Positions 3,687 through 56,979 of a stretch of DNA of 64,000 nt are shown in pieces (position 1 is the first letter of the stretch; every line of letters starts with the position of its first letter). The stretch is from a virus (Duplodnaviria; Heunggongvirae; Uroviricota; Caudoviricetes). The notes beneath the pieces were generated by a model, which worked only from the letters and a program-made list of their open reading frames with translations, did not search any database and had not been told where the DNA came from. A program made the translations under genes and the position numbers. The stretch lies in IMG/VR virus record IMGVR_UViG_3300014205_000201. The stretch is one strand, 5' to 3'.

Positions 3687-4640
3687 CTATGTCGCCTTAC
3701 CTACTGGAAGTAGAACTGGTAATAAAGAAAGCGCATTTTTTACTTTAGCCCAAACTTCATCAGGTTTTTTATATATGTCTTTCTCCCATAATCTTAGAAC
3801 TATGTATCCTTGCTTCCCAAGTGTATCGTTTACAATCGAATCTCTAATAAGCGCTTTAGGTTGGGTATGCCAATAGTTTCCATCAACAAATATACAAAGA
3901 TTAGGTGAAATAAAAATATCAGGAAGCCCAAACAAAGCAACATGTGTTTTAAAAATAATATTATTTGTTGTCAGAAGAGACTGCATTAATCTCTCAGGTT
4001 TGGTATTGTTACATGATGAAAACGTTTTTGCCCTTTGTTTTAATCCTTTTTCAGATTTACAATATTCAATTAATTTTTTACTAATTTTTTCGGCTTGTCC
4101 TTCAACAAATGGATGCGGTTTTCCTTTTAATGCATTGCTTATTTTCAATTTTCTTTCTGTTGAAAGAGGACTACATTTTCTGCCATTATATTTTGCTGGT
4201 TTTCTTTTTTTCCCATTAAGAGGTCTGTGCTTTCCACGCATACCATAATTTGGATATTCTTCTTCATTAAATTTTTTTCCAACATGAGCGGCGCTCAATT
4301 TTTGTTTTGTTTCCTGAGTTAAGTGCCTTCCTTTAAGTGTTTCGCCTATTTTTCTTCGCCATTCATCGTTTTTAACTAATCCTTTTACACCACTTGGTTT
4401 TCCCCTTTTCGATTCACTTAGTTTTCGCTTTGTATCTTCAGACATAGGCTTCCCCTTATTCCAACTTGGTTTTCCCATATGGGAAATTGAGAGTTTTTGC
4501 CTAGTTTCTAATGAAAATATTTTATCTTTTTTGATTCCAGCTTTATGTCCGCATATGTATTTGCATCGAGGATTTATTATTAACTGACCACAACCACAAG
4601 CGCAATATTTTTGCTTAGTTTTATCCAAGATAACAACCAC
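3687..4640 (-). CDS. homing-endonuclease-like protein: N-terminal Cys cluster, three NUMOD3 repeats, C-terminal Vsr/DUF559-like PD-(D/E)XK domain
   Basis: Repeats ETRQKLSISHMGKPSWNKG / DTKRKLSESKRGKPSGVKG / ETKQKLSAAHVGKK. C-terminal IFVDGNYWHTQPKALIRD resembles Vsr FVDGCFWH. Confidence 0.55.
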   Translation of the reverse strand: MVVILDKTKQKYCACGCGQLIINPRCKYICGHKAGIKKDKIFSLETRQKLSISHMGKPSWNKGKPMSEDTKRKLSESKRGKPSGVKGLVKNDEWRRKIGETLKGRHLTQETKQKLSAAHVGKKFNEEEYPNYGMRGKHRPLNGKKRKPAKYNGRKCSPLSTERKLKISNALKGKPHPFVEGQAEKISKKLIEYCKSEKGLKQRAKTFSSCNNTKPERLMQSLLTTNNIIFKTHVALFGLPDIFISPNLCIFVDGNYWHTQPKALIRDSIVNDTLGKQGYIVLRLWEKDIYKKPDEVWAKVKNALSLLPVLLPVGKAT

Positions 4641-9183: not shown

Positions 9184-9419
9184 TCACCAGTTTTGTTGTA
9201 ACTGTCAATCTTTCTTTCATGCCACCAAATATAGAAGCCTAAACTAATAGAAATAATTACAGCGCCAAAAATTATGTAAGGCAAAATTGATATAAGATTT
9301 AGTGGCCCAGGGCAACCTTGCCAAGTAGTACAGCTATACTTAGCTGGATTAAAGAAGCGGTCTATCTCTTCCCACCAAGTTAAGTTTGCTAAATGCTGAT
9401 GCCAAGCTTCACTCAACAT
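9180..9419 (-). CDS. small membrane protein (79 aa)
   Basis: TM helix; Trp-rich. Confidence 0.45.
   Translation of the reverse strand: MLSEAWHQHLANLTWWEEIDRFFNPAKYSCTTWQGCPGPLNLISILPYIIFGAVIISISLGFYIWWHERKIDSYNKTGE
9184..9208. promoter_or_regulatory. IR motif copy (tcaccagttttgttgtaactgtcaa)
   Basis: abuts the start codon at 9183. Confidence 0.5.
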
Positions 9420-10051
9420 ACATCACCAGTTTTATCATTTTGCAATCTAACAGATAGACAGTCTTTACGACCAGCAACAAAAGAATGTGTATGATAAGCT
9501 TTTACAAGACTAGTATTTTGTACACCTAATTTTAATTTACCAGGTGGATCAATCAACCATGGTTTTTCTTTTATTATTAAACCACGCATTTCATCTTCTA
9601 ATTGTAAATATAGTTTTTCCCTAAAGATCGGATCCTTGTTTTTCTGTGAACGATAATCAAGTAATTTCATCAAAACAATTGCCCTTTCTTTTTTCTGTAC
9701 TAAATAGGGAATGATCTTTGGCAAAATAATTCTTTGAGCATTAGGATAAAAACGTAAGTCATACCCGATTGCAGCAACTTCACCCTCTCGTTTAAAACGC
9801 ATTACAACAATATTTCCCAAACCACAAATCGAGTTTTTTATAAATTCAATATTATGTTTATTCATACTATTTATATTAACACGAGGCTCAAGTTCATAGC
9901 CACGATTACTGCCTTTCCATTTTTTTAGAAGCTTAGGGTTCTTATAATGTCTAAAGAGCATTATACATCCTTCACCATCGACCATTCCAGCGAGATACGC
10001 CCATGTCGTTTCTGGTATAGTTATATCGATTGCCATCACATATTCCACCAA
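9413..10051 (-). CDS. free-standing LAGLIDADG homing-endonuclease-like protein (paralog of 13729-14280)
   Basis: WAYLAGMVDGEGCIML matches the LAGLIDADG consensus; shares IILPKIIPYLVQKKE with the paralog. Confidence 0.65.
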   Translation of the reverse strand: MVEYVMAIDITIPETTWAYLAGMVDGEGCIMLFRHYKNPKLLKKWKGSNRGYELEPRVNINSMNKHNIEFIKNSICGLGNIVVMRFKREGEVAAIGYDLRFYPNAQRIILPKIIPYLVQKKERAIVLMKLLDYRSQKNKDPIFREKLYLQLEDEMRGLIIKEKPWLIDPPGKLKLGVQNTSLVKAYHTHSFVAGRKDCLSVRLQNDKTGDVC

Positions 10052-13351: not shown

Positions 13352-13729
13352 TTAAAACCCCCAGAAATAACTCGTTTTATATTCTAGTTCGTAGGCTAGC
13401 CCGTAGGTTTCGTTGAATATAGCGATGTATCCTTTGACGTTACTAATATATGCTTGATAAACTGGCATTTCAGTTGTAACTTGTCGTGTGAAGTAAACAT
13501 AATCGTCTGTGGTTTGAATAACTGTTGGGCTATTCACAACACCATCATAAACTGTATAGCCTTGAATTTGTAGATCGTGCTTTGCCTGAGCATTAACTGT
13601 ATCACGATTATTTGCAGTAGCATATATGCCGGCGAAAAGACCGCCGCATAATACAACAATAATAGTAATCATTGCGGCAAATATAACAAGTCCGCCGTAT
13701 TCATCCCAAAATCCCCATTCATGCCCCAT
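13352..13729 (-). CDS. small membrane protein (125 aa)
   Basis: TM helix after the N-terminal segment. Confidence 0.45.
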   Translation of the reverse strand: MGHEWGFWDEYGGLVIFAAMITIIVVLCGGLFAGIYATANNRDTVNAQAKHDLQIQGYTVYDGVVNSPTVIQTTDDYVYFTRQVTTEMPVYQAYISNVKGYIAIFNETYGLAYELEYKTSYFWGF

Positions 13730-14280
13730 TATTGTTTATCCTCCTTGCCAGTTAGCAGTATTGTTGGCACAGATTTTTTATACCATTTATAATGATTTGT
13801 TGAATGAGAAAATTTAGTACCATCCCAAATTGGTAAACGATAATATTTCCAGAATTGCTGTTTTTCTTGAGCCATCTCAAACAGAGCATAAAGTTCTTTT
13901 CTTCTCTGCTTTATATTTAAGTTATTAAGAACATGATTCGATTCTAAAAGATTAACCCATTCAAGATATATTTCAGCTATTTCCTTTTTCTGAATAAGAT
14001 AAGGAATAATATTAGGTAATATTATCTTTGCTTCATTTGAACGGAAACGTAGATAGTAAGTAAGAACTTTTCCGACTTCATGTTGCTCCTGTATCTTTCC
14101 CAACTTTAAAAGATATTGTAGGTCAAGCAAATTTTGTAGGTTCATATTTGAAATATTAAATTGACTCTCGCCACTTAAACGGTCTGTTCCGTTTATCTTG
14201 CGTTTACGTTGAGAGATATTAATACAACCCTCGCCATCAACAAAGCCAGCTAGATAAGCCCACACTGTTTCTGGTATCAT
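13729..14280 (-). CDS. free-standing LAGLIDADG homing-endonuclease-like protein (paralog of 9413-10051)
   Basis: WAYLAGFVDGEGCINIS; IILPNIIPYLIQKKE. Confidence 0.65.
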   Translation of the reverse strand: MIPETVWAYLAGFVDGEGCINISQRKRKINGTDRLSGESQFNISNMNLQNLLDLQYLLKLGKIQEQHEVGKVLTYYLRFRSNEAKIILPNIIPYLIQKKEIAEIYLEWVNLLESNHVLNNLNIKQRRKELYALFEMAQEKQQFWKYYRLPIWDGTKFSHSTNHYKWYKKSVPTILLTGKEDKQ

Positions 14281-22152: not shown

Positions 22153-22947
22153 TTGTTATGGCAAGCCTTATATTTCTACTTTAACAAAACATATAATATG
22201 CCAATTATAAAAAATCAACGCATAGATGAAGTCCCAACAGAAGATTGGCTAACATACATAGACCTAGCGTCAAAAATAGATTATTCACAAGCCAAACAAA
22301 TACCTCCCTTTCAAAGATGGCTTTGTGCAGTATTAGCCATAGACTGGTTAACTGGAAAAAGAATAAATGAAATACTACGCTTAAAACGCAAAGACATTAC
22401 ATTCACAAAAAGCGATATAAAAATAAAATTTATGGTAGGAAAAAAACGAGCTAGAGGAAGCCCAATAGAATTACAACCTTACCAAAAAATAAGAACAATT
22501 GAACACAAAGCTATACCATACATAATCAGCTATTTAGATGATTATGACAAAAGATTAGAAAGCGATCCTGAAATAGCCCAATACATCAAAAATATGGGCA
22601 ACTATATTTTTCCCTGTCCATCTAAGCCCAGAACTAAAGTTGTTAAAACAAAATTTACAAATGGCAAAGGAGAACAAGAAGTTAGAGCTTATACCTATGA
22701 ACAGATAGGTGGATACATGAAAGAAGAAAACGCATTCTTCTGGCTACAAAAAATTAACAACCAGTTACCTCAAGAACGCCGGATTTACTTTCACTATGGG
22801 CGGCACTCAATTGGGTTACATATGGCATACCAAGGAAAAAGCCCGTACAAGATAGCGGAAATATTAGATGAAACAGTTGATGCTGCATTACAGTACACTA
22901 AGCATTCATCTGGTTACGATAATGATTGGCGAAATGAAAAGGAGTAA
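22153..22947 (+). CDS. tyrosine recombinase/integrase-like protein (264 aa)
   Basis: box I Arg (GKRINEILRLKRKDI); HYGRHS (HxxR); catalytic Tyr context LQYTKH. Confidence 0.55.
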   Translation: MLWQALYFYFNKTYNMPIIKNQRIDEVPTEDWLTYIDLASKIDYSQAKQIPPFQRWLCAVLAIDWLTGKRINEILRLKRKDITFTKSDIKIKFMVGKKRARGSPIELQPYQKIRTIEHKAIPYIISYLDDYDKRLESDPEIAQYIKNMGNYIFPCPSKPRTKVVKTKFTNGKGEQEVRAYTYEQIGGYMKEENAFFWLQKINNQLPQERRIYFHYGRHSIGLHMAYQGKSPYKIAEILDETVDAALQYTKHSSGYDNDWRNEKE

Positions 22948-24816: not shown

Positions 24817-24990
24817 ATGGCGGTTATTGAATTTGCCAACATGGAAACGCAACGCGCCCTAGAACGATTCAGTCCATACCACAAAGAACCACCAACCCCA
24901 GTACAAAGACTCCCGAACCTCCCCGCAAAAATCGCCTATCAAAAAGTAGTCAACGGCAAACCCGTTATCACCATAATTACAAAGGAGTAA
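24817..24990 (+). CDS. 57-aa protein; the track ORF 24769-24990 is N-extended in frame
   Basis: SD AAGGAGAG precedes the ATG at 24817. Confidence 0.5.
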   Translation: MAVIEFANMETQRALERFSPYHKEPPTPVQRLPNLPAKIAYQKVVNGKPVITIITKE

Positions 24991-28790: not shown

Positions 28791-29395
28791 TCTAACATGC
28801 AGAACCTAATCTTAGTCATAAAATATGACCCCGAAACAACCAACCAAGAAAAACTCAGAGACAACATAACCAACTTAGAAGGCGTGGAGTATGTCAACTA
28901 AAAAAATAAAAGAAAAAATGTTCAAAGAAATCTTGAACGCGGAAACCGGCGATTATATCACCCAGGCACAGACAGCATCCGCAATACATAAAGAAGGATG
29001 GTGATTAACATGCAGAAAGAAAAACCCAGCTTAGAAGAAATCTTAATACAAGAAGACTACCCAGAACAAGCAAAATACTTTGAAAATAAGAAAGCTAGTA
29101 AGAACTAAAAATCACCAAGTCGAACATGGTTTAATGTCTCCTAGCGTGAAACTGTGACATACCCCGAAACTTAGCGTTTGGGTACATAAAAGAATGAAAG
29201 AAAAAAGGAAATGTGAGGTGAAAAATATGGTAATGAAACAAGAGGAAAACCCCTTCTTTGACTTCGGAGAGGAAGATGTACAAGAAATAGATGACTGGAT
29301 TTGGAACGATTGGTAGGTTCCTGATGAGTTCCTGGAATGGAACGAAATACCCAAGTTATTTATTGGGTATAGAACCAAAATGGAGATAAAACCAA

Positions 29396-30244
29396 ATGCT
29401 ACAACTTAGCGTTAACCCAAGAGAAACATTAACGGCTAAAGTCTGGGAAACATGGCAAAAAGCCGGATACACAACCCAGCCCCACAGCCTAACCTGGATA
29501 GAACTAGACAACCTTACAGGCTTCTACCTAAAAACCTGCACAGCGAGAAACATAGATTACCAAGCCTTCGATTTTTTGAGCTTACTTGATTCTAAACTTA
29601 ACTACTATGAAAATCAATCCGCTATAGATGAAGCATTAGCTGGATCCTTAACTGAAGAAGAAGCCTATAAACGATATGAAGCAGACATGAATAACCAAGA
29701 ATTAAAAGAAGAAATAAAACAAATCAACGAAATCCAAGCAACAGTAATAAACAAAATAGAACAAATCCCAAACATAATACAGCTAATAGATGCCCTTAAT
29801 CAAAGCCAAAGTTTTCAATCACTCGGTAAAGCCTTATCTCCACTTATCAACCCATCAAGCACACCAATAAAAACAATGACTAATGATGGCGACCCCAATA
29901 AACCTGCACACTACACATACCATAATCAAGGGGCCGAATACTGCAAATATTGTGGAATAAAAATAGATGCCGATACCGTTAAATGTCCTAACTGTGGAGC
30001 ACCAATAAAAGAAGATAAGCCAGTAACTTTATCACAGTTAATACCAGAATGCTTCAAACCAAAAAAACCAGTAAGCTTCTTAGACGCATTCGCCGGTGCG
30101 ATGGTTACATTAATCTGGCTAGCCGTAACCTATGGAGCCTTAACCAGCGGCACAATAACATGGATAACAGTTGTTGCAGTAGCGTTTTGGTGGGCACTAT
30201 TCGTAGTAGTATTTAGAATAGTAGTTGGAGGCATACTGAATTGA
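29396..30244 (+). CDS. coiled-coil protein with a zinc ribbon (CKYCG...CPNCG) and a C-terminal TM anchor (282 aa)
   Basis: co-directional packing. Confidence 0.5.
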   Translation: MLQLSVNPRETLTAKVWETWQKAGYTTQPHSLTWIELDNLTGFYLKTCTARNIDYQAFDFLSLLDSKLNYYENQSAIDEALAGSLTEEEAYKRYEADMNNQELKEEIKQINEIQATVINKIEQIPNIIQLIDALNQSQSFQSLGKALSPLINPSSTPIKTMTNDGDPNKPAHYTYHNQGAEYCKYCGIKIDADTVKCPNCGAPIKEDKPVTLSQLIPECFKPKKPVSFLDAFAGAMVTLIWLAVTYGALTSGTITWITVVAVAFWWALFVVVFRIVVGGILN

Positions 30245-31306: not shown

Positions 31307-32188
31307 ATGTCAGAACAAACTTGGATAGGCTACAAAGATTTAGAACCCATCAGAAGACTCCGAAATGAGGGTAGAGAACTTATAGGAAAAACCCTAACCC
31401 TTACAGAGAAAAGAGATGGTGAAAACGTATCAACTCGTTTAGTAAACGCAAGCATCCCCATAGGTATGGTAAACCTACAAATTAGTTCACACAATCAAGA
31501 AGAAGCAGCACCCGACATAATCAACCGATTCAAAGCGACCAAAGAATACAACAAAGTCAAAACATTACTCGAAACTGAACTAACATTTCATCACAACTAT
31601 ATTCTCTATGGAGAACTTCTAAAAGAAGTAGGCCCAACACGGATAGAACCCAGACGAAAAAAACTTCAATGGATATTATTCGATGCTTGGGATTGCGAAC
31701 TAAAACGTTACATCAGCTACACACAGTTATACCAGCTAGCATACCATTACAAGATTCCAATCGTCAAAGCAGTAGACTTCTTTATTCCTACCAGTGAAGA
31801 GGAGCTAGCTAGCAAAATCGCGGCCTTAATGAAATGGTGCAAACGCCACCGGCGAGAAGGCATTGTAGGTAAAGACTATGAGAACCAAGTGTTCTTTAAA
31901 GAAAAGATAGACTTACCAAAACTGCCCAAGCTACCCAGAGATCCACAAATCCAATTACCATCAATGACACAGGAAAAGATAATTCGAGCGCTACAACATG
32001 CATACGATGAAGTGGGAGAAACTAACTGGAAAAACGTAAAAGTAGCTATGCCAATCGTAGCAAAGCATTTCTCGATAGAAGCAAAAGAACATAACTTTAG
32101 CACACCCAAAAACATGTTCCAACTATGGATGAACACCCCAACAGAACAAATTAAACCGTTGCCAGTTGAATCAGAAAAGTCAACATAA
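31307..32188 (+). CDS. ATP-dependent polynucleotide ligase (RNA or minimal DNA ligase; covalent nucleotidyltransferase superfamily)
   Basis: motif I TEKRDGENV (KxDG); motif III-like ILYGELL; motif IV EGIVGK; motif V-like KEK; 293 aa. Confidence 0.55.
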   Translation: MSEQTWIGYKDLEPIRRLRNEGRELIGKTLTLTEKRDGENVSTRLVNASIPIGMVNLQISSHNQEEAAPDIINRFKATKEYNKVKTLLETELTFHHNYILYGELLKEVGPTRIEPRRKKLQWILFDAWDCELKRYISYTQLYQLAYHYKIPIVKAVDFFIPTSEEELASKIAALMKWCKRHRREGIVGKDYENQVFFKEKIDLPKLPKLPRDPQIQLPSMTQEKIIRALQHAYDEVGETNWKNVKVAMPIVAKHFSIEAKEHNFSTPKNMFQLWMNTPTEQIKPLPVESEKST

Positions 32189-33459: not shown

Positions 33460-33690
33460 ATGAAGTTCTGGAAAGTTTTTGGGTTAACGACAACAGTATC
33501 AGCAGTCTTAATGAGTGCCCTTACAGTGATATTTTATTCACAGGTTGACTTAACCTTAACATGGTATGCTATTATTTTTCCTGTTTTTACGGGTTTTATG
33601 ATTGCATTTCTATCTGATTTTGAGGAAGTTCTTGAGTGGGTGGGTAATAAACTATCGGATGTCAACAACAAATCGGAGGATCGCCCATGA
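33460..33690 (+). CDS. small membrane protein (76 aa, 2 TM)
   Basis: SD GGAGGT. Confidence 0.45.
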   Translation: MKFWKVFGLTTTVSAVLMSALTVIFYSQVDLTLTWYAIIFPVFTGFMIAFLSDFEEVLEWVGNKLSDVNNKSEDRP

Positions 33691-34019
33691 TGCCTAACAC
33701 CTATGTTAAAGTTATCCGTGATTGGAAAGCATCCGGTGGTCCTGATGTCTATTGTCCTGTTGATGTAGCCACTGGTAAAATGTATGTGGGTTTAAGTCTT
33801 ATCGGTTTTGTTCCTAAAGGTGGGATAATTGTGGGGGAGTTTGATGAAAAGACCGATACGCTCACGTTAAATAAACCAAAAGAAACAGTGGCGGGGGTAG
33901 TTGAGAAGAGGGACAACACCCTAAGTCAAAGGGAAGGCGTGGGTTCGACTCCCATCCCCCGACCATCTTCGATTAACAATCAGAAACCAACAGTTAGTCA
34001 ACGACCACAAAATATATAA
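33687..34019 (+). CDS. hypothetical protein (110 aa); its 3' third overlaps a tRNA-like element
   Basis: SD GGAGGAT. Confidence 0.4.
   Translation: MMPNTYVKVIRDWKASGGPDVYCPVDVATGKMYVGLSLIGFVPKGGIIVGEFDEKTDTLTLNKPKETVAGVVEKRDNTLSQREGVGSTPIPRPSSINNQKPTVSQRPQNI
33891..33963 (+). tRNA. tRNA-Asp(GUC)-like 73-nt element (degenerate): full cloverleaf by standard numbering but with G1-A72 and A27-A43 mismatches and A33 instead of U33
   Basis: Acceptor GCGGGGG / CCCCCGA. D arm GTTG-AGAAGAGGGA-CAAC. Anticodon arm CCCT-AAGTCAA-AGGG. T arm GTGGG-TTCGACT-CCCAT. Discriminator C then CA. Confidence 0.3.
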
Positions 34020-34042
34020 GTAGTCAACGACTATAAGGGATA

Positions 34043-34297
34043 GTGAGGAAAACAAAAATGACTGACCTAAAAGTAAACAAAATAGATCAACAAACCTTAA
34101 CATATTGCTTAACTGAAAAAGCACAATACTCTGATGAAGAGTTTCATGACTATTTCGAAGTAACCGTACAAAGAGGCAAAGTTACCACCATAAAATTTGA
34201 TGGTAAAGAAGTTCATGCACGGCATCTCTACATGTTAAGAAATCTCTTCTTAAAACTAGACGAAGAAGCCCTCACACTAAGTTATGGGGGAAGCTAA
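34043..34297 (+). CDS. hypothetical protein (84 aa)
   Basis: co-directional packing. Confidence 0.45.
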   Translation: MRKTKMTDLKVNKIDQQTLTYCLTEKAQYSDEEFHDYFEVTVQRGKVTTIKFDGKEVHARHLYMLRNLFLKLDEEALTLSYGGS

Positions 34298-34463: not shown

Positions 34464-34706
34464 ATGTTGGTGATATACGGATGGCGAGGAAGAAGTCCAC
34501 AAGGGTTAATGTGGCTATACAGAAATATGCACCAACAATTCTTTGGCTTCGATGTACTACCCTATCAAGAGTTCTGCAAAATGCTAAATAATGCAGCATG
34601 TGAAAACCGAACCAAACACCAGCATTCATGGCGGCTAAAATATACTGGTGAATCACTGACGGATGAATCACGTTTAACAGGAGATAATGGAAATGCAGAC
34701 AAATGA
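34464..34706 (+). CDS. hypothetical protein (80 aa)
   Basis: co-directional packing. Confidence 0.4.
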   Translation: MLVIYGWRGRSPQGLMWLYRNMHQQFFGFDVLPYQEFCKMLNNAACENRTKHQHSWRLKYTGESLTDESRLTGDNGNADK

Positions 34707-35211
34707 ACAGGTAAGAAAAAAGCATCGAGAAAACTATGCTTTAAGTAATGGTGCGTATCTGCAAGCAAATAAAAAATGGAAGGTTGAACATCCAGGTAAA
34801 GAATATGAGGCAGGTATTAACTGGATTGTTAGAAATCGGCATAAGAAAAGAGCGCAAATGATTGCTCATCGATTGATTCCCCTAAAACCCGTTTGCGAAA
34901 TATGTGGAGGAATTGATAGATTACAAAGACACCACAAAGACTATGGCAAACCCTTAGAGGTTTTAACCCTATGTAATCCTTGCCATAATGCTTTGGAAGT
35001 AATTGAGCCAGCAAAGTATAGTAATCTACCTCAATTAAGATTCTATAATGGAGTCATTCCAGTTGAAATCTTAGATAGTACCTGTGTTGGGACTGGTAAA
35101 AAGTGGCCTTGTAAAATACTTGCAACAGGAGAAGTAAAGGCGTTGCATGTTGGGCGACTTTGTTATTTACCCAAAAGACGGCTAGAAAGACAAAAGACAA
35201 CGGAGCCTTAA
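34687..35211 (+). CDS. HNH endonuclease (paralog group of three)
   Basis: CEICGG...RHHKDYGKPLEVLTLCNPCHNALE. Confidence 0.6.
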   Translation: MEMQTNEQVRKKHRENYALSNGAYLQANKKWKVEHPGKEYEAGINWIVRNRHKKRAQMIAHRLIPLKPVCEICGGIDRLQRHHKDYGKPLEVLTLCNPCHNALEVIEPAKYSNLPQLRFYNGVIPVEILDSTCVGTGKKWPCKILATGEVKALHVGRLCYLPKRRLERQKTTEP

Positions 35212-36413: not shown

Positions 36414-37160
36414 ATGAAAAATTTGTACTATTGTCTTGATTGTTTCGCTAAAATTCCTAAAGATAGTATTTTAAAAGAAGGCCAAGTATACCGATTAAGA
36501 CAGCCTACAAAATGCTATATTTGCCACAAGACATTTAATCGTCCTATTAAGTTAATGAAGTTTTCAAAAGATAGTATTAGACAAGATTATTTTAGAAAAT
36601 GTTTAACATGTGGTTTTGAAGCCAAAACACTCGATGACCTTAAACTGTTTAAACCCCGAAAAGGAAAATACTTTGCTTATGGTGTTGATGCTATCTGCCT
36701 AAATTGTCATACTGCAAAAAACATTGAATATATGAAACGCCAAAGAGAAGTTAATCCCCAAAAAAGTAGAGAGGCAGTAATGAAAAATTATTATAAAGAC
36801 CCTTCAAAACAGAGGGCAAGGGATTATTCATGGCGATTTATACAACCTGATACAAAATGTGCCGCTTGTGGCGCTACAGGTGTTCCATTACAAAAACATC
36901 ATCCTGATTATTCGCAATGGGATTTAGTGATAACACTATGTCGTAAGTGTCATGCAAAGCTTCGTAAGACTCCTAAAAAAATTAAGCCTAAATTTTCTCT
37001 TTGTAGCCAATGCCAAAATAAAACTTATCCTCCTGGTTATGTGATAACTTGGAGATGTTTAGGTCATAATGCTGATGTAAGCCCTATCCGCGAACGGTGG
37101 TTTACCTGTTCTACTTTTAAGCCTATTAATACAATCCGAAATGGGGTTCAATCAACATGA
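36414..37160 (+). CDS. HNH endonuclease with N-terminal zinc fingers (248 aa)
   Basis: CAACGATGVPLQKHHPDYSQWDLVITLCRKCHAKL. Confidence 0.6.
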   Translation: MKNLYYCLDCFAKIPKDSILKEGQVYRLRQPTKCYICHKTFNRPIKLMKFSKDSIRQDYFRKCLTCGFEAKTLDDLKLFKPRKGKYFAYGVDAICLNCHTAKNIEYMKRQREVNPQKSREAVMKNYYKDPSKQRARDYSWRFIQPDTKCAACGATGVPLQKHHPDYSQWDLVITLCRKCHAKLRKTPKKIKPKFSLCSQCQNKTYPPGYVITWRCLGHNADVSPIRERWFTCSTFKPINTIRNGVQST

Positions 37161-39310: not shown

Positions 39311-39660
39311 GTATTGACCTTCTTAAGTAGTTTATAGAATGGAATTTCGTCTAAGGTATGGTATCTTGAATTTATTTCTCCAAAGTTTTCTGCTAGAAGT
39401 TCTTTAATTTGTTGGTGTGATAATTTGTGATAAACTTCTTTTAGATTTAATTCTCTTATTACATATGCCCCTTCATTACATGTTGGGCAACGATAGAGAT
39501 TTCTATCTTTGTTAAGACATAGGCAAGCACCATGTTCTTTGCAAGTTACTTTATTATTTTCTGTCCAGAAGATTTTGCCAGTTGAAACTGATGTTAGGCC
39601 ATTTTTCACTATTGGATTGAATTTTGGCATGTCTTTTATATCAATTAGTTTATAGTTCAT
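39307..39660 (-). CDS. zinc-ribbon protein (CKEHGACLCL...CPTC); start at the internal Met MNYKLID with SD GGAGAG
   Basis: the track ORF 39307-39723 would overlap the HNH gene by 74 nt. Confidence 0.45.
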   Translation of the reverse strand: MNYKLIDIKDMPKFNPIVKNGLTSVSTGKIFWTENNKVTCKEHGACLCLNKDRNLYRCPTCNEGAYVIRELNLKEVYHKLSHQQIKELLAENFGEINSRYHTLDEIPFYKLLKKVNT

Positions 39661-40231
39661 TTTTATTCTCTCCTGCCAAATTATTTTTATCAGTATGTTC
39701 CCATCTATTACATGACCGCCCATTTATGGATACTTTGAATCTACCACAAGATGGCCAAATCTTTTTACAGCTATCACAATGCCTATTTGCGAAGTAGGAT
39801 ACAACATCTTTTGGGGTTCCCTTTGGTATATTATCTCTATGCCATAAACCATGGCACTTTCTACAAAGGGTTGTTACTGTGAGTGGTTTGGTATAGTCAT
39901 CATGATGCCTAACTAGGTTCTCTGTTGCACCACATTTTTCGCATTTATCTTTTAGTGATGTAAATGTATAGGCATATCTTTGTGCTTTAAAATGATCCAT
40001 GTTGTTTGATCGCCATTTATAATATGATTTGGCGTAAGCGTCAGCGTGCTCTTGTCTGTATTGTCTTGCTTTCTTATGGTCTGCTTCTTTTTGGTCGGGA
40101 GTTTTTGCATCATTTTTTGCTCTTCTTTTTAAATTTCGCTTATGATTATAATCTGGATCTATCAGCATTTGTTTATGGCGATATTTTGTTGAGGCGCTGG
40201 TCATTATGTTAATGCCTCGCATTTTAAGCAT
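39650..40231 (-). CDS. HNH endonuclease (third paralog)
   Basis: CEKCGATENLVRHHDDYTKPLTVTTLCRKCHGLWH. Confidence 0.6.
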   Translation of the reverse strand: MLKMRGINIMTSASTKYRHKQMLIDPDYNHKRNLKRRAKNDAKTPDQKEADHKKARQYRQEHADAYAKSYYKWRSNNMDHFKAQRYAYTFTSLKDKCEKCGATENLVRHHDDYTKPLTVTTLCRKCHGLWHRDNIPKGTPKDVVSYFANRHCDSCKKIWPSCGRFKVSINGRSCNRWEHTDKNNLAGENKNEL

Positions 40232-49271: not shown

Positions 49272-50171
49272 CTAATATCGCCTTGGCTTAAAGAGATTTC
49301 CAATATATGCGCCCCAGTTCTGATAAATCCCACCGTATCGTGCAATCATTGTATTTGCACCTCTAGCTGGTGCCCAACCGATAAAGCTGCAAAGCGCCAA
49401 AGTATCTTTAATTTCGTAGAACTCGTTAAGCTCCTTAGTACGCACATGCCGCAGACCATGAAGTTTGAAACTATGGTCATGTTGTGGAGTTGTATCATAT
49501 TGTGCTATATCATCTGATTTTTTGAGTTTTTTATATTCTCGGTATATAATACCATTTGTTGGAGATTTTAATTGTGTATTTTCAGGTATAATTGCCAATT
49601 TACCCAACACTATTCTTACAGTATAGCGTTCTACAGGATAAGAAAATTGTTTGAAGCATCCTCTGGTTTCAATGAAGTCTAAGTAATGCTTACGGTTAGA
49701 TGGGAATAATGGTTCATTGCCTCTTTGTTGATAGTAGTTATAGATTTCCTCTGCCCATGGTTCAAACTTTTTATCAAATGGTATTGCAGCATGTCGATAA
49801 GGAACTGTTTCACCTTGCAATAAATGTTTTTTAGCTATAGGAATTTTGAAAACGGCCACTTTTTTGGGAGAGGGAGGCATCATCATCAAGGCCATAACTT
49901 GCCCCATTGACATGTTAGGGTTTGAATTAATTTGGTTTAAACGTTCGGTTTGTTCTTCTGTAGATACTGCGGCTGGGTGATATTCATCTATCCAAGCATA
50001 TCCTTTGCCAATTGTGCCATACGCTTTTTCGCCATTACAAGGTTTATTAGCAAACTCTACGGATCTACCTCCAAAAGTTAAGGCACATTTTGTGAACATG
50101 CGTACTTCAGGATCTTTTATCTGTTCAATTGCCTCTCGTATTAATTGTGGAGTTGGTTCAATAAGTTCCAT
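49272..50171 (-). CDS. tyrosine recombinase/integrase (299 aa); paralog of 55801-56979
   Basis: KLHGLRHVRTKE (HxxR) ... ARYGGIY. Shares FKIPIAKKH ... VPYRHAAIPF ... FEPW with the paralog. Confidence 0.6.
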   Translation of the reverse strand: MELIEPTPQLIREAIEQIKDPEVRMFTKCALTFGGRSVEFANKPCNGEKAYGTIGKGYAWIDEYHPAAVSTEEQTERLNQINSNPNMSMGQVMALMMMPPSPKKVAVFKIPIAKKHLLQGETVPYRHAAIPFDKKFEPWAEEIYNYYQQRGNEPLFPSNRKHYLDFIETRGCFKQFSYPVERYTVRIVLGKLAIIPENTQLKSPTNGIIYREYKKLKKSDDIAQYDTTPQHDHSFKLHGLRHVRTKELNEFYEIKDTLALCSFIGWAPARGANTMIARYGGIYQNWGAYIGNLFKPRRY

Positions 50172-55778: not shown

Positions 55779-55805
55779 ACCGACAGTTACGATGAAACTG
55801 TCAAC
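55779..55805. promoter_or_regulatory. IR motif copy (caccgacagttacgatgaaactgtcaac); the rightmost copy noticed
   Basis: GACAGTT-N8-AACTGTCA. Confidence 0.5.
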
Positions 55806-56979
55806 AACTAAACTCCACACATAACTTCTTAATATACCGATGCCAACACTCACGAAGCTCCGCATAATTACCAGCTTGATTAGGCAACGCAACACCCCTA
55901 CCAGACCATCCAACATAGGCAACTAAATCTACACCATCAAATCCCCGATACTTCACTAATTCATCAGTACGAATATGCCGTAAACCATGAATCTTCAAAG
56001 GCTTAGGATGTGAAAGTACCTTGTATATTTGGCGGCGATAAATTTTACCATAATAATCCATTCGGTATTCAAACTCGTCAATAGATATGACCTTTAAACC
56101 TATCTTGTTTGGTGAAGTTTCAATAAGTTCATTGTATAACCCTTTCTTAATGCCCTCAAGATCTTCTTTAGATAGTAATTCATCACTCGCATCATTATAT
56201 GTATATTTTTTAATACGATAGGTTAACCCCTTAAACACAGGATCTTTACGACTAATATAATCCCAAATTTCAGCCCTACTAAAAGGAAAAACAGGTTTAC
56301 CCTTATGCATCTGAAAATATTTATAAATTATTTTTGTCCATGGCTCAAAGTCCTCTGATAAAGGTAAAGCCACTAGCCGATAAGGAGCTTCTTCACCTTT
56401 AACTAACCCATGTGTCTTCGCAATTTTGATTTTAAAAACCACAACTGGAATCCGTGTCTTCGCCTTAGTAATAGCATCTTTTATAGAGATGCTACCCTGT
56501 TGTATTGATAGCAACATTTCCAATACATCAAGCCATTGTGGATCAGGAGGCTCAGTATTATCCAACCAAGCATCATCACCGTATGGTCCATAGTTCATGG
56601 TGTACCCACTAGATTTATCAGCAGAAGAACGATTGAAAGCAATTTCACATGCCCTAGCAGCGCCACATAAATAAACAGTCATCAAATAAACACGATAACA
56701 TTCAACCTTCACGCTTTCAATAGCATGACGAACAGCCATAACTGAAGGCAAACTATGACAAGAGGAAACCACAACATCAATCTTCACTCTATCTTGCTTT
56801 CTGCAAAAAACACGGGGAATTTTAATGCGAAATAAACAAGGATACTTATACTCAGATAAAGAAGGATTAAAATTTTTACAGTTGCCACAAAGTAAAGGCA
56901 CATATTTTTTGAGGCTTGGTTTACGTCTTGGCGTATTGGACACCAAAACTAAAGTTAACGCTAACTGACTTAAATACAT
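55801..56979 (-). CDS. tyrosine recombinase/integrase (paralog of 49272-50171). An N-terminal extension of about 120 aa that is Cys-rich may be a mis-start; the Met at MNYGPYGDDAWLD is a plausible true start.
   Basis: KIHGLRHIRTDE (HxxR) ... AELRECWHRY; FKIKIAKTHG ... APYRLVALPL ... FEPW. Confidence 0.6.
   Translation of the reverse strand: MYLSQLALTLVLVSNTPRRKPSLKKYVPLLCGNCKNFNPSLSEYKYPCLFRIKIPRVFCRKQDRVKIDVVVSSCHSLPSVMAVRHAIESVKVECYRVYLMTVYLCGAARACEIAFNRSSADKSSGYTMNYGPYGDDAWLDNTEPPDPQWLDVLEMLLSIQQGSISIKDAITKAKTRIPVVVFKIKIAKTHGLVKGEEAPYRLVALPLSEDFEPWTKIIYKYFQMHKGKPVFPFSRAEIWDYISRKDPVFKGLTYRIKKYTYNDASDELLSKEDLEGIKKGLYNELIETSPNKIGLKVISIDEFEYRMDYYGKIYRRQIYKVLSHPKPLKIHGLRHIRTDELVKYRGFDGVDLVAYVGWSGRGVALPNQAGNYAELRECWHRYIKKLCVEFSC

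Follow-up and report, generated by a model that had tools for sequence, protein, structure and literature searches.

A damaged tRNA-like segment, probably a tRNA pseudogene, in an uncultivated archaeal-type replicon

Structure and defects of the tRNA-like segment

This analysis focused on a segment resembling a transfer RNA (tRNA) gene in a 64,000-nucleotide stretch of IMG/VR virus record IMGVR_UViG_3300014205_000201; the whole of that stretch is called the window below. With its tail, the segment covers positions 33891..33965 of the plus strand and reads GCGGGGGUAGUUGAGAAGAGGGACAACACCCUAAGUCAAAGGGAAGGCGUGGGUUCGACUCCCAUCCCCCGACCA. It is damaged, it is a singleton, and homology with a related locus breaks off just upstream of it; it is probably the pseudogene of a tRNA captured by this lineage.

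ARAGORN, which a preliminary description of this DNA had proposed as a check, called one gene in the whole 64-kb window, tRNA-Asp(gtc) at 33891-33964. The Rfam tRNA family RF00005 matched 33891-33963 over its full model (1-71) with 31.0 bits, which passes the curated gathering score of 29 (E=0.017 in a search space of 64 kb, both strands and 4227 families). Dinucleotide-preserving shuffles of the window (n=100, 6.4 Mb in total) gave no ARAGORN call, and the G+C fraction of the segment was 0.60 in surroundings of 0.36-0.40. Because of the two matches, the empty shuffles and the raised G+C, the segment is tRNA-derived, and a chance fold is excluded. The preliminary description had drawn a cloverleaf at these positions, within the ORF (open reading frame) 33687-34019 and on its coding strand, and every detail of it was found again in the ARAGORN drawing and the RF00005 match: the T arm GTGGG-TTCGACT-CCCAT, the GG of the D loop, the anticodon GUC, and the three defects G1-A72, A27-A43 and A33.

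In the ARAGORN drawing, all of it on the plus strand, the acceptor 5' strand (33891-33897) is followed by U8 and A9 (33898-33899), a D arm (33900-33917; stem GUUG/CAAC, 10-nt loop containing GGG), the anticodon arm (33919-33933; stem CCCU/AGGG), a variable region (33934-33938), the T arm (33939-33955) and the acceptor 3' strand (33956-33962), where an A faces G1. The sequence then ends in a tail reading ...ACCA, the last base of which is 33965. Pairing is complete in the D stem (4/4) and the T stem (5/5), but reaches only 6/7 in the acceptor, owing to G1 opposite A, and 4/5 in the anticodon stem, so that the canonical set of a 7-bp acceptor, 4-bp D, 5-bp anticodon and 5-bp T stem is incomplete. 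The anticodon arm is 15 nt long instead of the normal 17, and its four pairs are of Watson-Crick type; ARAGORN fitted it by omitting nucleotide 26 and taking A/A as pair 27:43, and the Rfam alignment kept three pairs only and skipped the remainder.

The anticodon loop, AAGUCAA (33923-33929, anticodon at 33925-33927), carries A32 and A33. Y32 and U33 are near-universal in tRNA anticodon loops, and of the features of a decoding-competent loop (Y32, U33 and a purine at 37) only the last is present, as A37. The discriminator is C in the ARAGORN numbering and becomes A when A-CCA is taken as the tail, and is in neither case G73, a major identity element for aspartyl-tRNA synthetase (AspRS); of the tRNA-Asp set of GUC and G73, the segment therefore has only the anticodon. 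Its 3' end, CCCCCG-ACCA, resembles CCCCCGC-A-CCA minus C72. The cloverleaf has an energy of -23.3 kcal/mol, against -25.7 kcal/mol for the alternative fold of minimum free energy (MFE), and the fold z-score of -0.58 indicates a stability no greater than that of shuffled sequence. Conversely, the conserved tertiary set is complete in both the Rfam and the ARAGORN alignments (U8, A14, G15/C48, G18 and G19, A21, T54-A58), and the positions T54, Psi55 and C56 are also kept.

The score of 31.0 bits was the lowest of 45 tRNAs put through the same Rfam scan, the other 44, cellular and viral tRNAs from the loci collected for comparison, ranging from 41.7 to 72.4 bits. The segment thus combines lesions at functional positions with a depressed model score, the combination by which a tRNA pseudogene is recognised. 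The preliminary description had left a choice between a degenerate tRNA and an attachment-site relic, and its first half is borne out by this score and by the lesions at 1:72, the anticodon stem, position 33 and the discriminator. To the defects already listed there can be added the 15-nt anticodon arm, the non-G73 discriminator, the apparent loss of C72 and the non-MFE cloverleaf.

That the segment is nevertheless a working, non-canonical virus tRNA-Asp(GUC), processed from an operon transcript and used in translation, appears unlikely. It does pass ARAGORN and the Rfam gathering score, its tertiary positions and T arm are canonical and its tail is ACCA, and the same gene block contains an RNA ligase gene (31307..32188, +; PF09414, E=3.7e-13) 1.7 kb upstream. 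For phage tRNAs, mutations of the anticodon loop have been suggested as a way round tRNA-targeting defences (PMC10264068); likewise, the A32 A33 loop might resist host anticodon nucleases, with the RNA ligase as a possible repair partner. Set against this are the four-pair anticodon stem and lost U33, the unpaired G1, a discriminator of C or A in place of the AspRS element, and a score under all 44 reference tRNAs. Moreover, the ligase occurs widely among relatives in which tRNAs are absent, and the two are hence not a conserved pair, and the acceptor and T arm are Leu-like, not Asp-like. Charging with Asp, or decoding, by such a molecule is unlikely.

The phage tRNAs whose anticodon-loop changes have been suggested to protect them from host anticodon nucleases (van den Berg et al. 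2023, PMC10264068) resemble the segment in having a loop that departs from the cellular consensus, and here too an RNA ligase gene is near. They differ from it in that here the universally conserved U33 is hit, the stem is shortened and acceptor identity is lost. A tRNA remodelled under selection, with its minihelix and ACCA tail kept but its loop altered to A32 A33 and its stem shortened, which together with the RNA ligase would counter host tRNA-cleaving defences either as a resistant replacement or as a decoy, is a highly improbable reading. If true, it would to our knowledge be the first example in archaeal viruses.

Position at the end of a small gene

The ORF that contains the segment falls into two parts. 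Its first ~63 codons (33687..33875, +) are the conserved part of a small gene whose 3' end has been replaced, as judged by comparison with protein P0002, and the rest (33876..34019, +) is a non-conserved read-through tail that crosses the tRNA-like segment to the first in-frame TAA (34017-34019). The 110-aa product has a single homologue among 5.8 billion proteins, namely P0002 (78 aa, on contig L001), with 73% identity over the first 63 residues only; the tail shows no similarity to the P0002 C-terminus in either protein or DNA. Homology with L001 at the DNA level stops at about 33873-33877, ~15 nt before the tRNA-like segment. L001 has no tRNA, and its next gene begins at the P0002 stop codon.

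That homology breaks off just before the segment suggests that DNA was inserted or replaced where the small gene ended, and that the original stop was thereby removed. Such a local event would have brought the tRNA into this lineage and at the same time taken away the C-terminus and stop codon of the gene, after which the ORF would run on across the tRNA-like segment to the next in-frame stop. Imperfect A-rich direct repeats around the insert were considered as a target-site duplication and were too weak to count. In shuffled sequence the frame stays open through the segment and the 54 bases beyond it with P ~0.13, and since this chance is not small no selection is needed for the overlap, which looks incidental; the 75-nt segment is also a multiple of 3, and the odds of lying in frame are 1 in 3. 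For annotation, the 110-aa ORF is better given as a conserved gene of ~63 aa with an accidental tail.

The start of ORF 33687-34019 overlaps the stop of the upstream ORF (ATGA) and has GGAGG in front of it, and the genes further upstream likewise overlap or abut and have ribosome-binding sites of the GGAGG type. The sole TATA-like string 5' of the tRNA-like segment, TTAAATAA (33867-33874), was considered as an archaeal promoter of its own and set aside, as it probably lies too close to the 5' end (~17 nt). An oligo-T run was absent from the sequence read 3' of the segment. Since it has neither promoter nor terminator of its own, the segment would be co-transcribed with the upstream genes, presumably by read-through as the last element of their transcription unit.

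Thirty bases 3' of the segment begins a block in which an exact 11-nt direct repeat, TAGTCAACGAC (33995-34005 and 34021-34031, +; found by pattern search), encloses the TATA-like string AAATATATAA (34010-34019, +). The window contains two exact copies of TAGTCAACGAC and one copy with one mismatch (24947-24957), against 0.65 expected. The next gene (34058-34297, +; ATG start, gene call from L002) is preceded by the Shine-Dalgarno sequence GTGAGGA (34043-34049), and, going by archaeal TATA-to-start spacing, the block formed by TAGTCAACGAC and AAATATATAA is probably its promoter/operator.

This placement bears on a rather unlikely alternative, that of a non-decoding tRNA-like RNA serving as an RNase P/tRNase Z signal for the 3' end of the upstream message, or as a decoy. 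The segment sits exactly at the end of the predicted transcription unit, before the repeat-flanked TATA-like box and with no oligo-T terminator after it, and its top half (minihelix, T loop and ACCA) has remained intact, in contrast to the damaged anticodon arm. Against such a role, the segment is conserved in no relative, a cut at its 5' end would deprive the upstream ORF of a stop codon, and three or four lesions are too few for a non-random pattern. We know of no precedent for a tRNA-like processing signal or decoy in archaeal viruses. Similar arrangements, in which a longer transcript ends 3' in an intact acceptor/T minihelix and a CCA-like tail, are found among non-decoding structures that act as RNA processing signals, such as mascRNA and the 3' tRNA-like structures of plant viruses. 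Those, however, are cases from eukaryotes and their viruses, whereas the copy described here is not conserved and its placement on a transcript is predicted.

Isotype, source and the attachment-site question

The T arm, acceptor and tail of the segment match archaeal tRNA-Leu genes reading GTGGGTTCGAATCCCA[CT]CCCCCGCACCA. When a degenerate pattern of the T arm and acceptor 3' strand was searched for, at least 120 metagenome matches and 12 matches in 11 IMG/VR loci were obtained. The great majority of those listed were archaeal tRNA-Leu genes, which read GCGGGGG...GTGGGUUCGAAUCCCA[CU]CCCCCGCACCA and in many cases contain introns; a small number were tRNA Asn, Met or Cys genes. The T-loop C of the element was in none of the matches listed in either collection, and similarity to the listed tRNA genes 5' of the T arm was at chance level. 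After CCCCCG, half of the matches listed continue with CACCA, where the element has ACCA. The simplest reading is that the ancestor had G1-C72, A73 and an encoded CCA and later lost one nucleotide, C72; the resemblance of T arm, acceptor and tail to archaeal tRNA-Leu is the reason for supposing a cellular source with encoded CCA and a subsequent loss at position 72.

Beyond these matches, the closest full tRNA among the 189 in the comparison loci was a viral tRNA-Leu(UAA), with similarity in the acceptor and T arm only. A blastn search of 50,697 phage records gave generic T-arm matches only, and in IMG/VR a gapped pattern aimed at class-I tRNAs that share this acceptor found only unrelated Gly and Glu tRNAs. 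The body of the segment is of class I, with its 4-bp D stem, 5-nt variable loop and GUC, and its ends are Leu-like. The Asp label, which depends on the damaged anticodon arm, is therefore weak, and the isotype is not assignable with confidence. It was also considered, as suggested by comparison locus L135, that the anticodon arm might be the variable arm of a class-II tRNA-Leu lacking its anticodon arm, but this was dropped, the resemblance being limited to a 3-bp stem.

The other half of the preliminary description, an attachment-site relic or attP (phage attachment site) core, fared less well, and the tRNA-like segment as an integration core is not supported. In this reading the segment would be the attP core or relic of one of the element's own tyrosine recombinases, and the target would most plausibly be an archaeal tRNA-Leu gene. 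All three tyrosine recombinases that had been described are present: one at 22153-22947 (PF00589 match, 11 kb from the segment), a second at 49272-50171 (15 kb away), which has no Pfam or PDB sequence match but whose family keeps R..HxxR..W..Y, and its paralogue at 55801-56979. tRNA-Leu genes of this kind are indeed used as integration sites by archaeal elements, and blocks of 11 and 12 nt in the segment are identical to many archaeal tRNA-Leu genes; in the matches listed, archaeal tRNA-Leu differs from the T arm and acceptor of the element by 1 nt and by the C72 that the element lacks.

A textbook att pair was seen in one comparison locus, IMGVR_UViG_3300033161_000031 (L133), at 130-195 and 9318-9383: a ~66-nt 3' fragment of an archaeal tRNA-Leu(CAG), repeated exactly ~9.2 kb apart around an integrated element. 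Compared with such archaeal att sites, the window is alike in encoding tyrosine recombinases and in a T arm and acceptor nearly identical to archaeal tRNA-Leu, and it recalls the SSV-type attP, which lies inside the integrase ORF, in that the segment also lies inside an ORF. It differs in carrying the whole cloverleaf, including the 5' acceptor strand and D arm, where real att fragments such as those of L133 are 3' parts only, and in having a damaged 3' end and no exact host match among those found. It is also neither in nor near a recombinase gene, all of these being at least 11 kb away. Nor is it duplicated: the second copy proposed earlier was sought in the window with a 30-mer allowing up to 3 mismatches and with blastn-short, and nothing of 13 nt or more exceeded chance. 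A relaxed Rfam scan of the window (E<=5), including the surroundings of the recombinase genes, found no other tRNA fragment. All assemblies give the same closed circle of ~87.0 kb, with no element ends at which attL and attR copies could lie.

A 21-mer running from the T loop to G71, thus through T arm and acceptor, had no exact match in any IMG/VR contig or in any tRNA gene of 185,579 species genomes (GTDB), and, as noted, the T-loop base of the element was missing from all of the matches listed. The lone genome match of the 21-mer, at L009 2515-2535 on the minus strand (Dehalococcoidia metagenome-assembled genome, DAOULY010000008.1), was rejected, being the orphan 3' fragment of a tRNA (...GTCGTGGGTTCGACTCCCATCCCCCGCTCCA) that lacks the 5' half, has no integrase and no Rfam family, and has ordinary chromosomal neighbours. 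Finally, a working host tRNA could match only the undamaged parts of the segment, and as the 3' end of the element is without C72, integration would rebuild a broken tRNA. Taken with the single copy and the distant recombinases, this makes an attachment core a very unlikely explanation, although short cores of 11-12 nt in common with archaeal tRNA-Leu leave it a small probability.

The reading preferred here, with a probability of roughly 0.58, is a tRNA pseudogene specific to this lineage: we infer that a cellular-type tRNA was captured and has since lost its decoding function together with its identity features. The top half is intact (6-bp acceptor helix, T arm and T loop, D/T tertiary positions, encoded ACCA), and the decoding half and identity positions are damaged (1:72, 4-bp anticodon stem, A32 and A33, no G73); RNase P, tRNase Z or a CCA enzyme might still recognise the minihelix.

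Several observations weigh against this reading. All conserved tertiary positions are intact and the G+C is still 0.60, a combination that fits recent capture or selection on the top half. The score of 31.0 bits exceeds the Rfam gathering score, and low scores are common in viral tRNAs. The comparisons with metagenomes, IMG/VR, genomes and phage records identified no source tRNA. The relatives are mosaic and the gene order around the site is not kept, so that the absence of the segment from them is weak evidence. Lastly, a change in the anticodon loop of a phage tRNA can be an adaptation (PMC10264068).

Viral genomes are already known to carry damaged tRNA copies, and the present one is unsurprising in itself, although its setting is uncommon. 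Like the tRNA genes and pseudogenes of phages and other viruses, it lies in a dense viral operon without its own promoter and with homing endonucleases near, and it is detected by standard finders. Unlike them, it is the only one in the ~93% of the genome scanned, it scores at the detection limit, its anticodon stem is 4 bp long, its position 33 is A and its 1:72 pair is missing, it lies in frame in an ORF tail, and its replicon is part of an archaeal-type gene pool, in which encoded tRNAs appear to be less frequently reported. In practice, the 'tRNA-Asp' call is best marked as a probable pseudogene, unsuitable for host prediction or as an att site. Were the segment functional, an uncultivated archaeal-type virus would have yielded a rare gene of tRNA type and a possible handle on tRNA-based conflict between archaeal viruses and their hosts; none of the findings requires a function.

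The replicon, its relatives and neighbouring genes

The same genome was found at 100% identity in JGI, ENA and Logan data, in several runs. Its two longest assemblies, JGI Ga0378408_0000526 (87,133 bp) and ENA k141_2474516 (87,147 bp, a name that points to MEGAHIT with k=141), have permuted starts, with a gene offset between them of 6,599 bp. Subtraction of typical terminal overlaps, the sizes of which are inferred, gives the same length for both (87133-127 = 87147-141 = 87006), and the 87,006-bp replicon is taken to be either a closed circle or circularly permuted. Calculated from the coordinates, the window corresponds to positions 14165-78164 of the JGI contig, reversed, and the tRNA-like segment is therefore mid-genome. 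The window together with stretches L003 and L006 makes up the ~93% scanned, which held no other tRNA or tRNA fragment. The JGI sample came from a landfill leachate well (bioRxiv 10.1101/2024.05.30.596742).

Most genes are without known relatives. Those that could be recognised include the RNA ligase (PF09414), a PF00589 integrase beside a DnaA-like initiator, a Band 7 protein, glycosyltransferases, DNA methyltransferases, and several HNH, LAGLIDADG and NUMOD3 endonucleases. Pfam and PHROGs searches of the window and its flanks found no capsid, terminase or portal genes, and because no capsid or terminase gene was found, the choice between virus and plasmid is not settled. The match of the ligase, the genes of its relatives, the archaeal-looking tRNA ends and the Shine-Dalgarno-led genes point to an archaeal virus or plasmid.

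The RNA ligase has 210 homologues, one of which bears the JGI name 'ATP-dependent RNA circularization protein', and its sole match among phage records was Caudoviricetes sp. vir521, an archaeal tailed virus with Methanofastidiosa given as host. Genes for portal and tail proteins occur in ligase-bearing relatives, and in one of these a PrimPol-like and an XPF-like protein were recognised by eye among the translated ORFs. The neighbourhood of the ligase gene differs in all 11 relative loci, often with a DNA methyltransferase or HNH gene beside it, and the gene appears to move between archaeal-type viral genomes. No tRNA was found in the 11 related loci (L001, L008 and L143-L151; ~125 kb in total), which share only single genes with the window; a truly syntenic empty site is offered by L001 only. 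The two genes flanking the site have no relatives in IMG/VR, and comparison through the RNA ligase (10 relatives) and these two genes revealed neither synteny nor a tRNA.

An HNH-type endonuclease gene (34687..35211, +; phrog_2340, E=2.1e-11) lies 0.7 kb downstream of the tRNA-like segment, in a region that is mosaic and contains several homing-endonuclease-like genes. The set of such genes in the window is unusually large: besides 34687-35211 (+), it comprises 3687-4640 (-), 9413-10051 (-), 13729-14280 (-), 36414-37160 (+) and 39650-40231 (-), that is, a NUMOD3 and Vsr type, a weak LAGLIDADG match and four HNH-type ORFs, three of which share the motif HH..Y..LC..CH.

Upstream of the RNA ligase gene, at 29296-29353 (+) and directly in front of ORF 29396-30244, the model of the type III hammerhead ribozyme (RF00008) matches below threshold, with 27.9 bits where the gathering score is 48.5 (window E=0.09). 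The CUGAUGAG...CGAAA core is complete and stems I and II are both there, whereas stem III is weak and the context of the cleavage site doubtful. A 69-nt direct repeat (2748-2816 and 2838-2906, -; copies 94% identical and 90 nt apart) lies inside the gene of a 1522-aa protein, which continues past the window's left end, and probably encodes a protein repeat.
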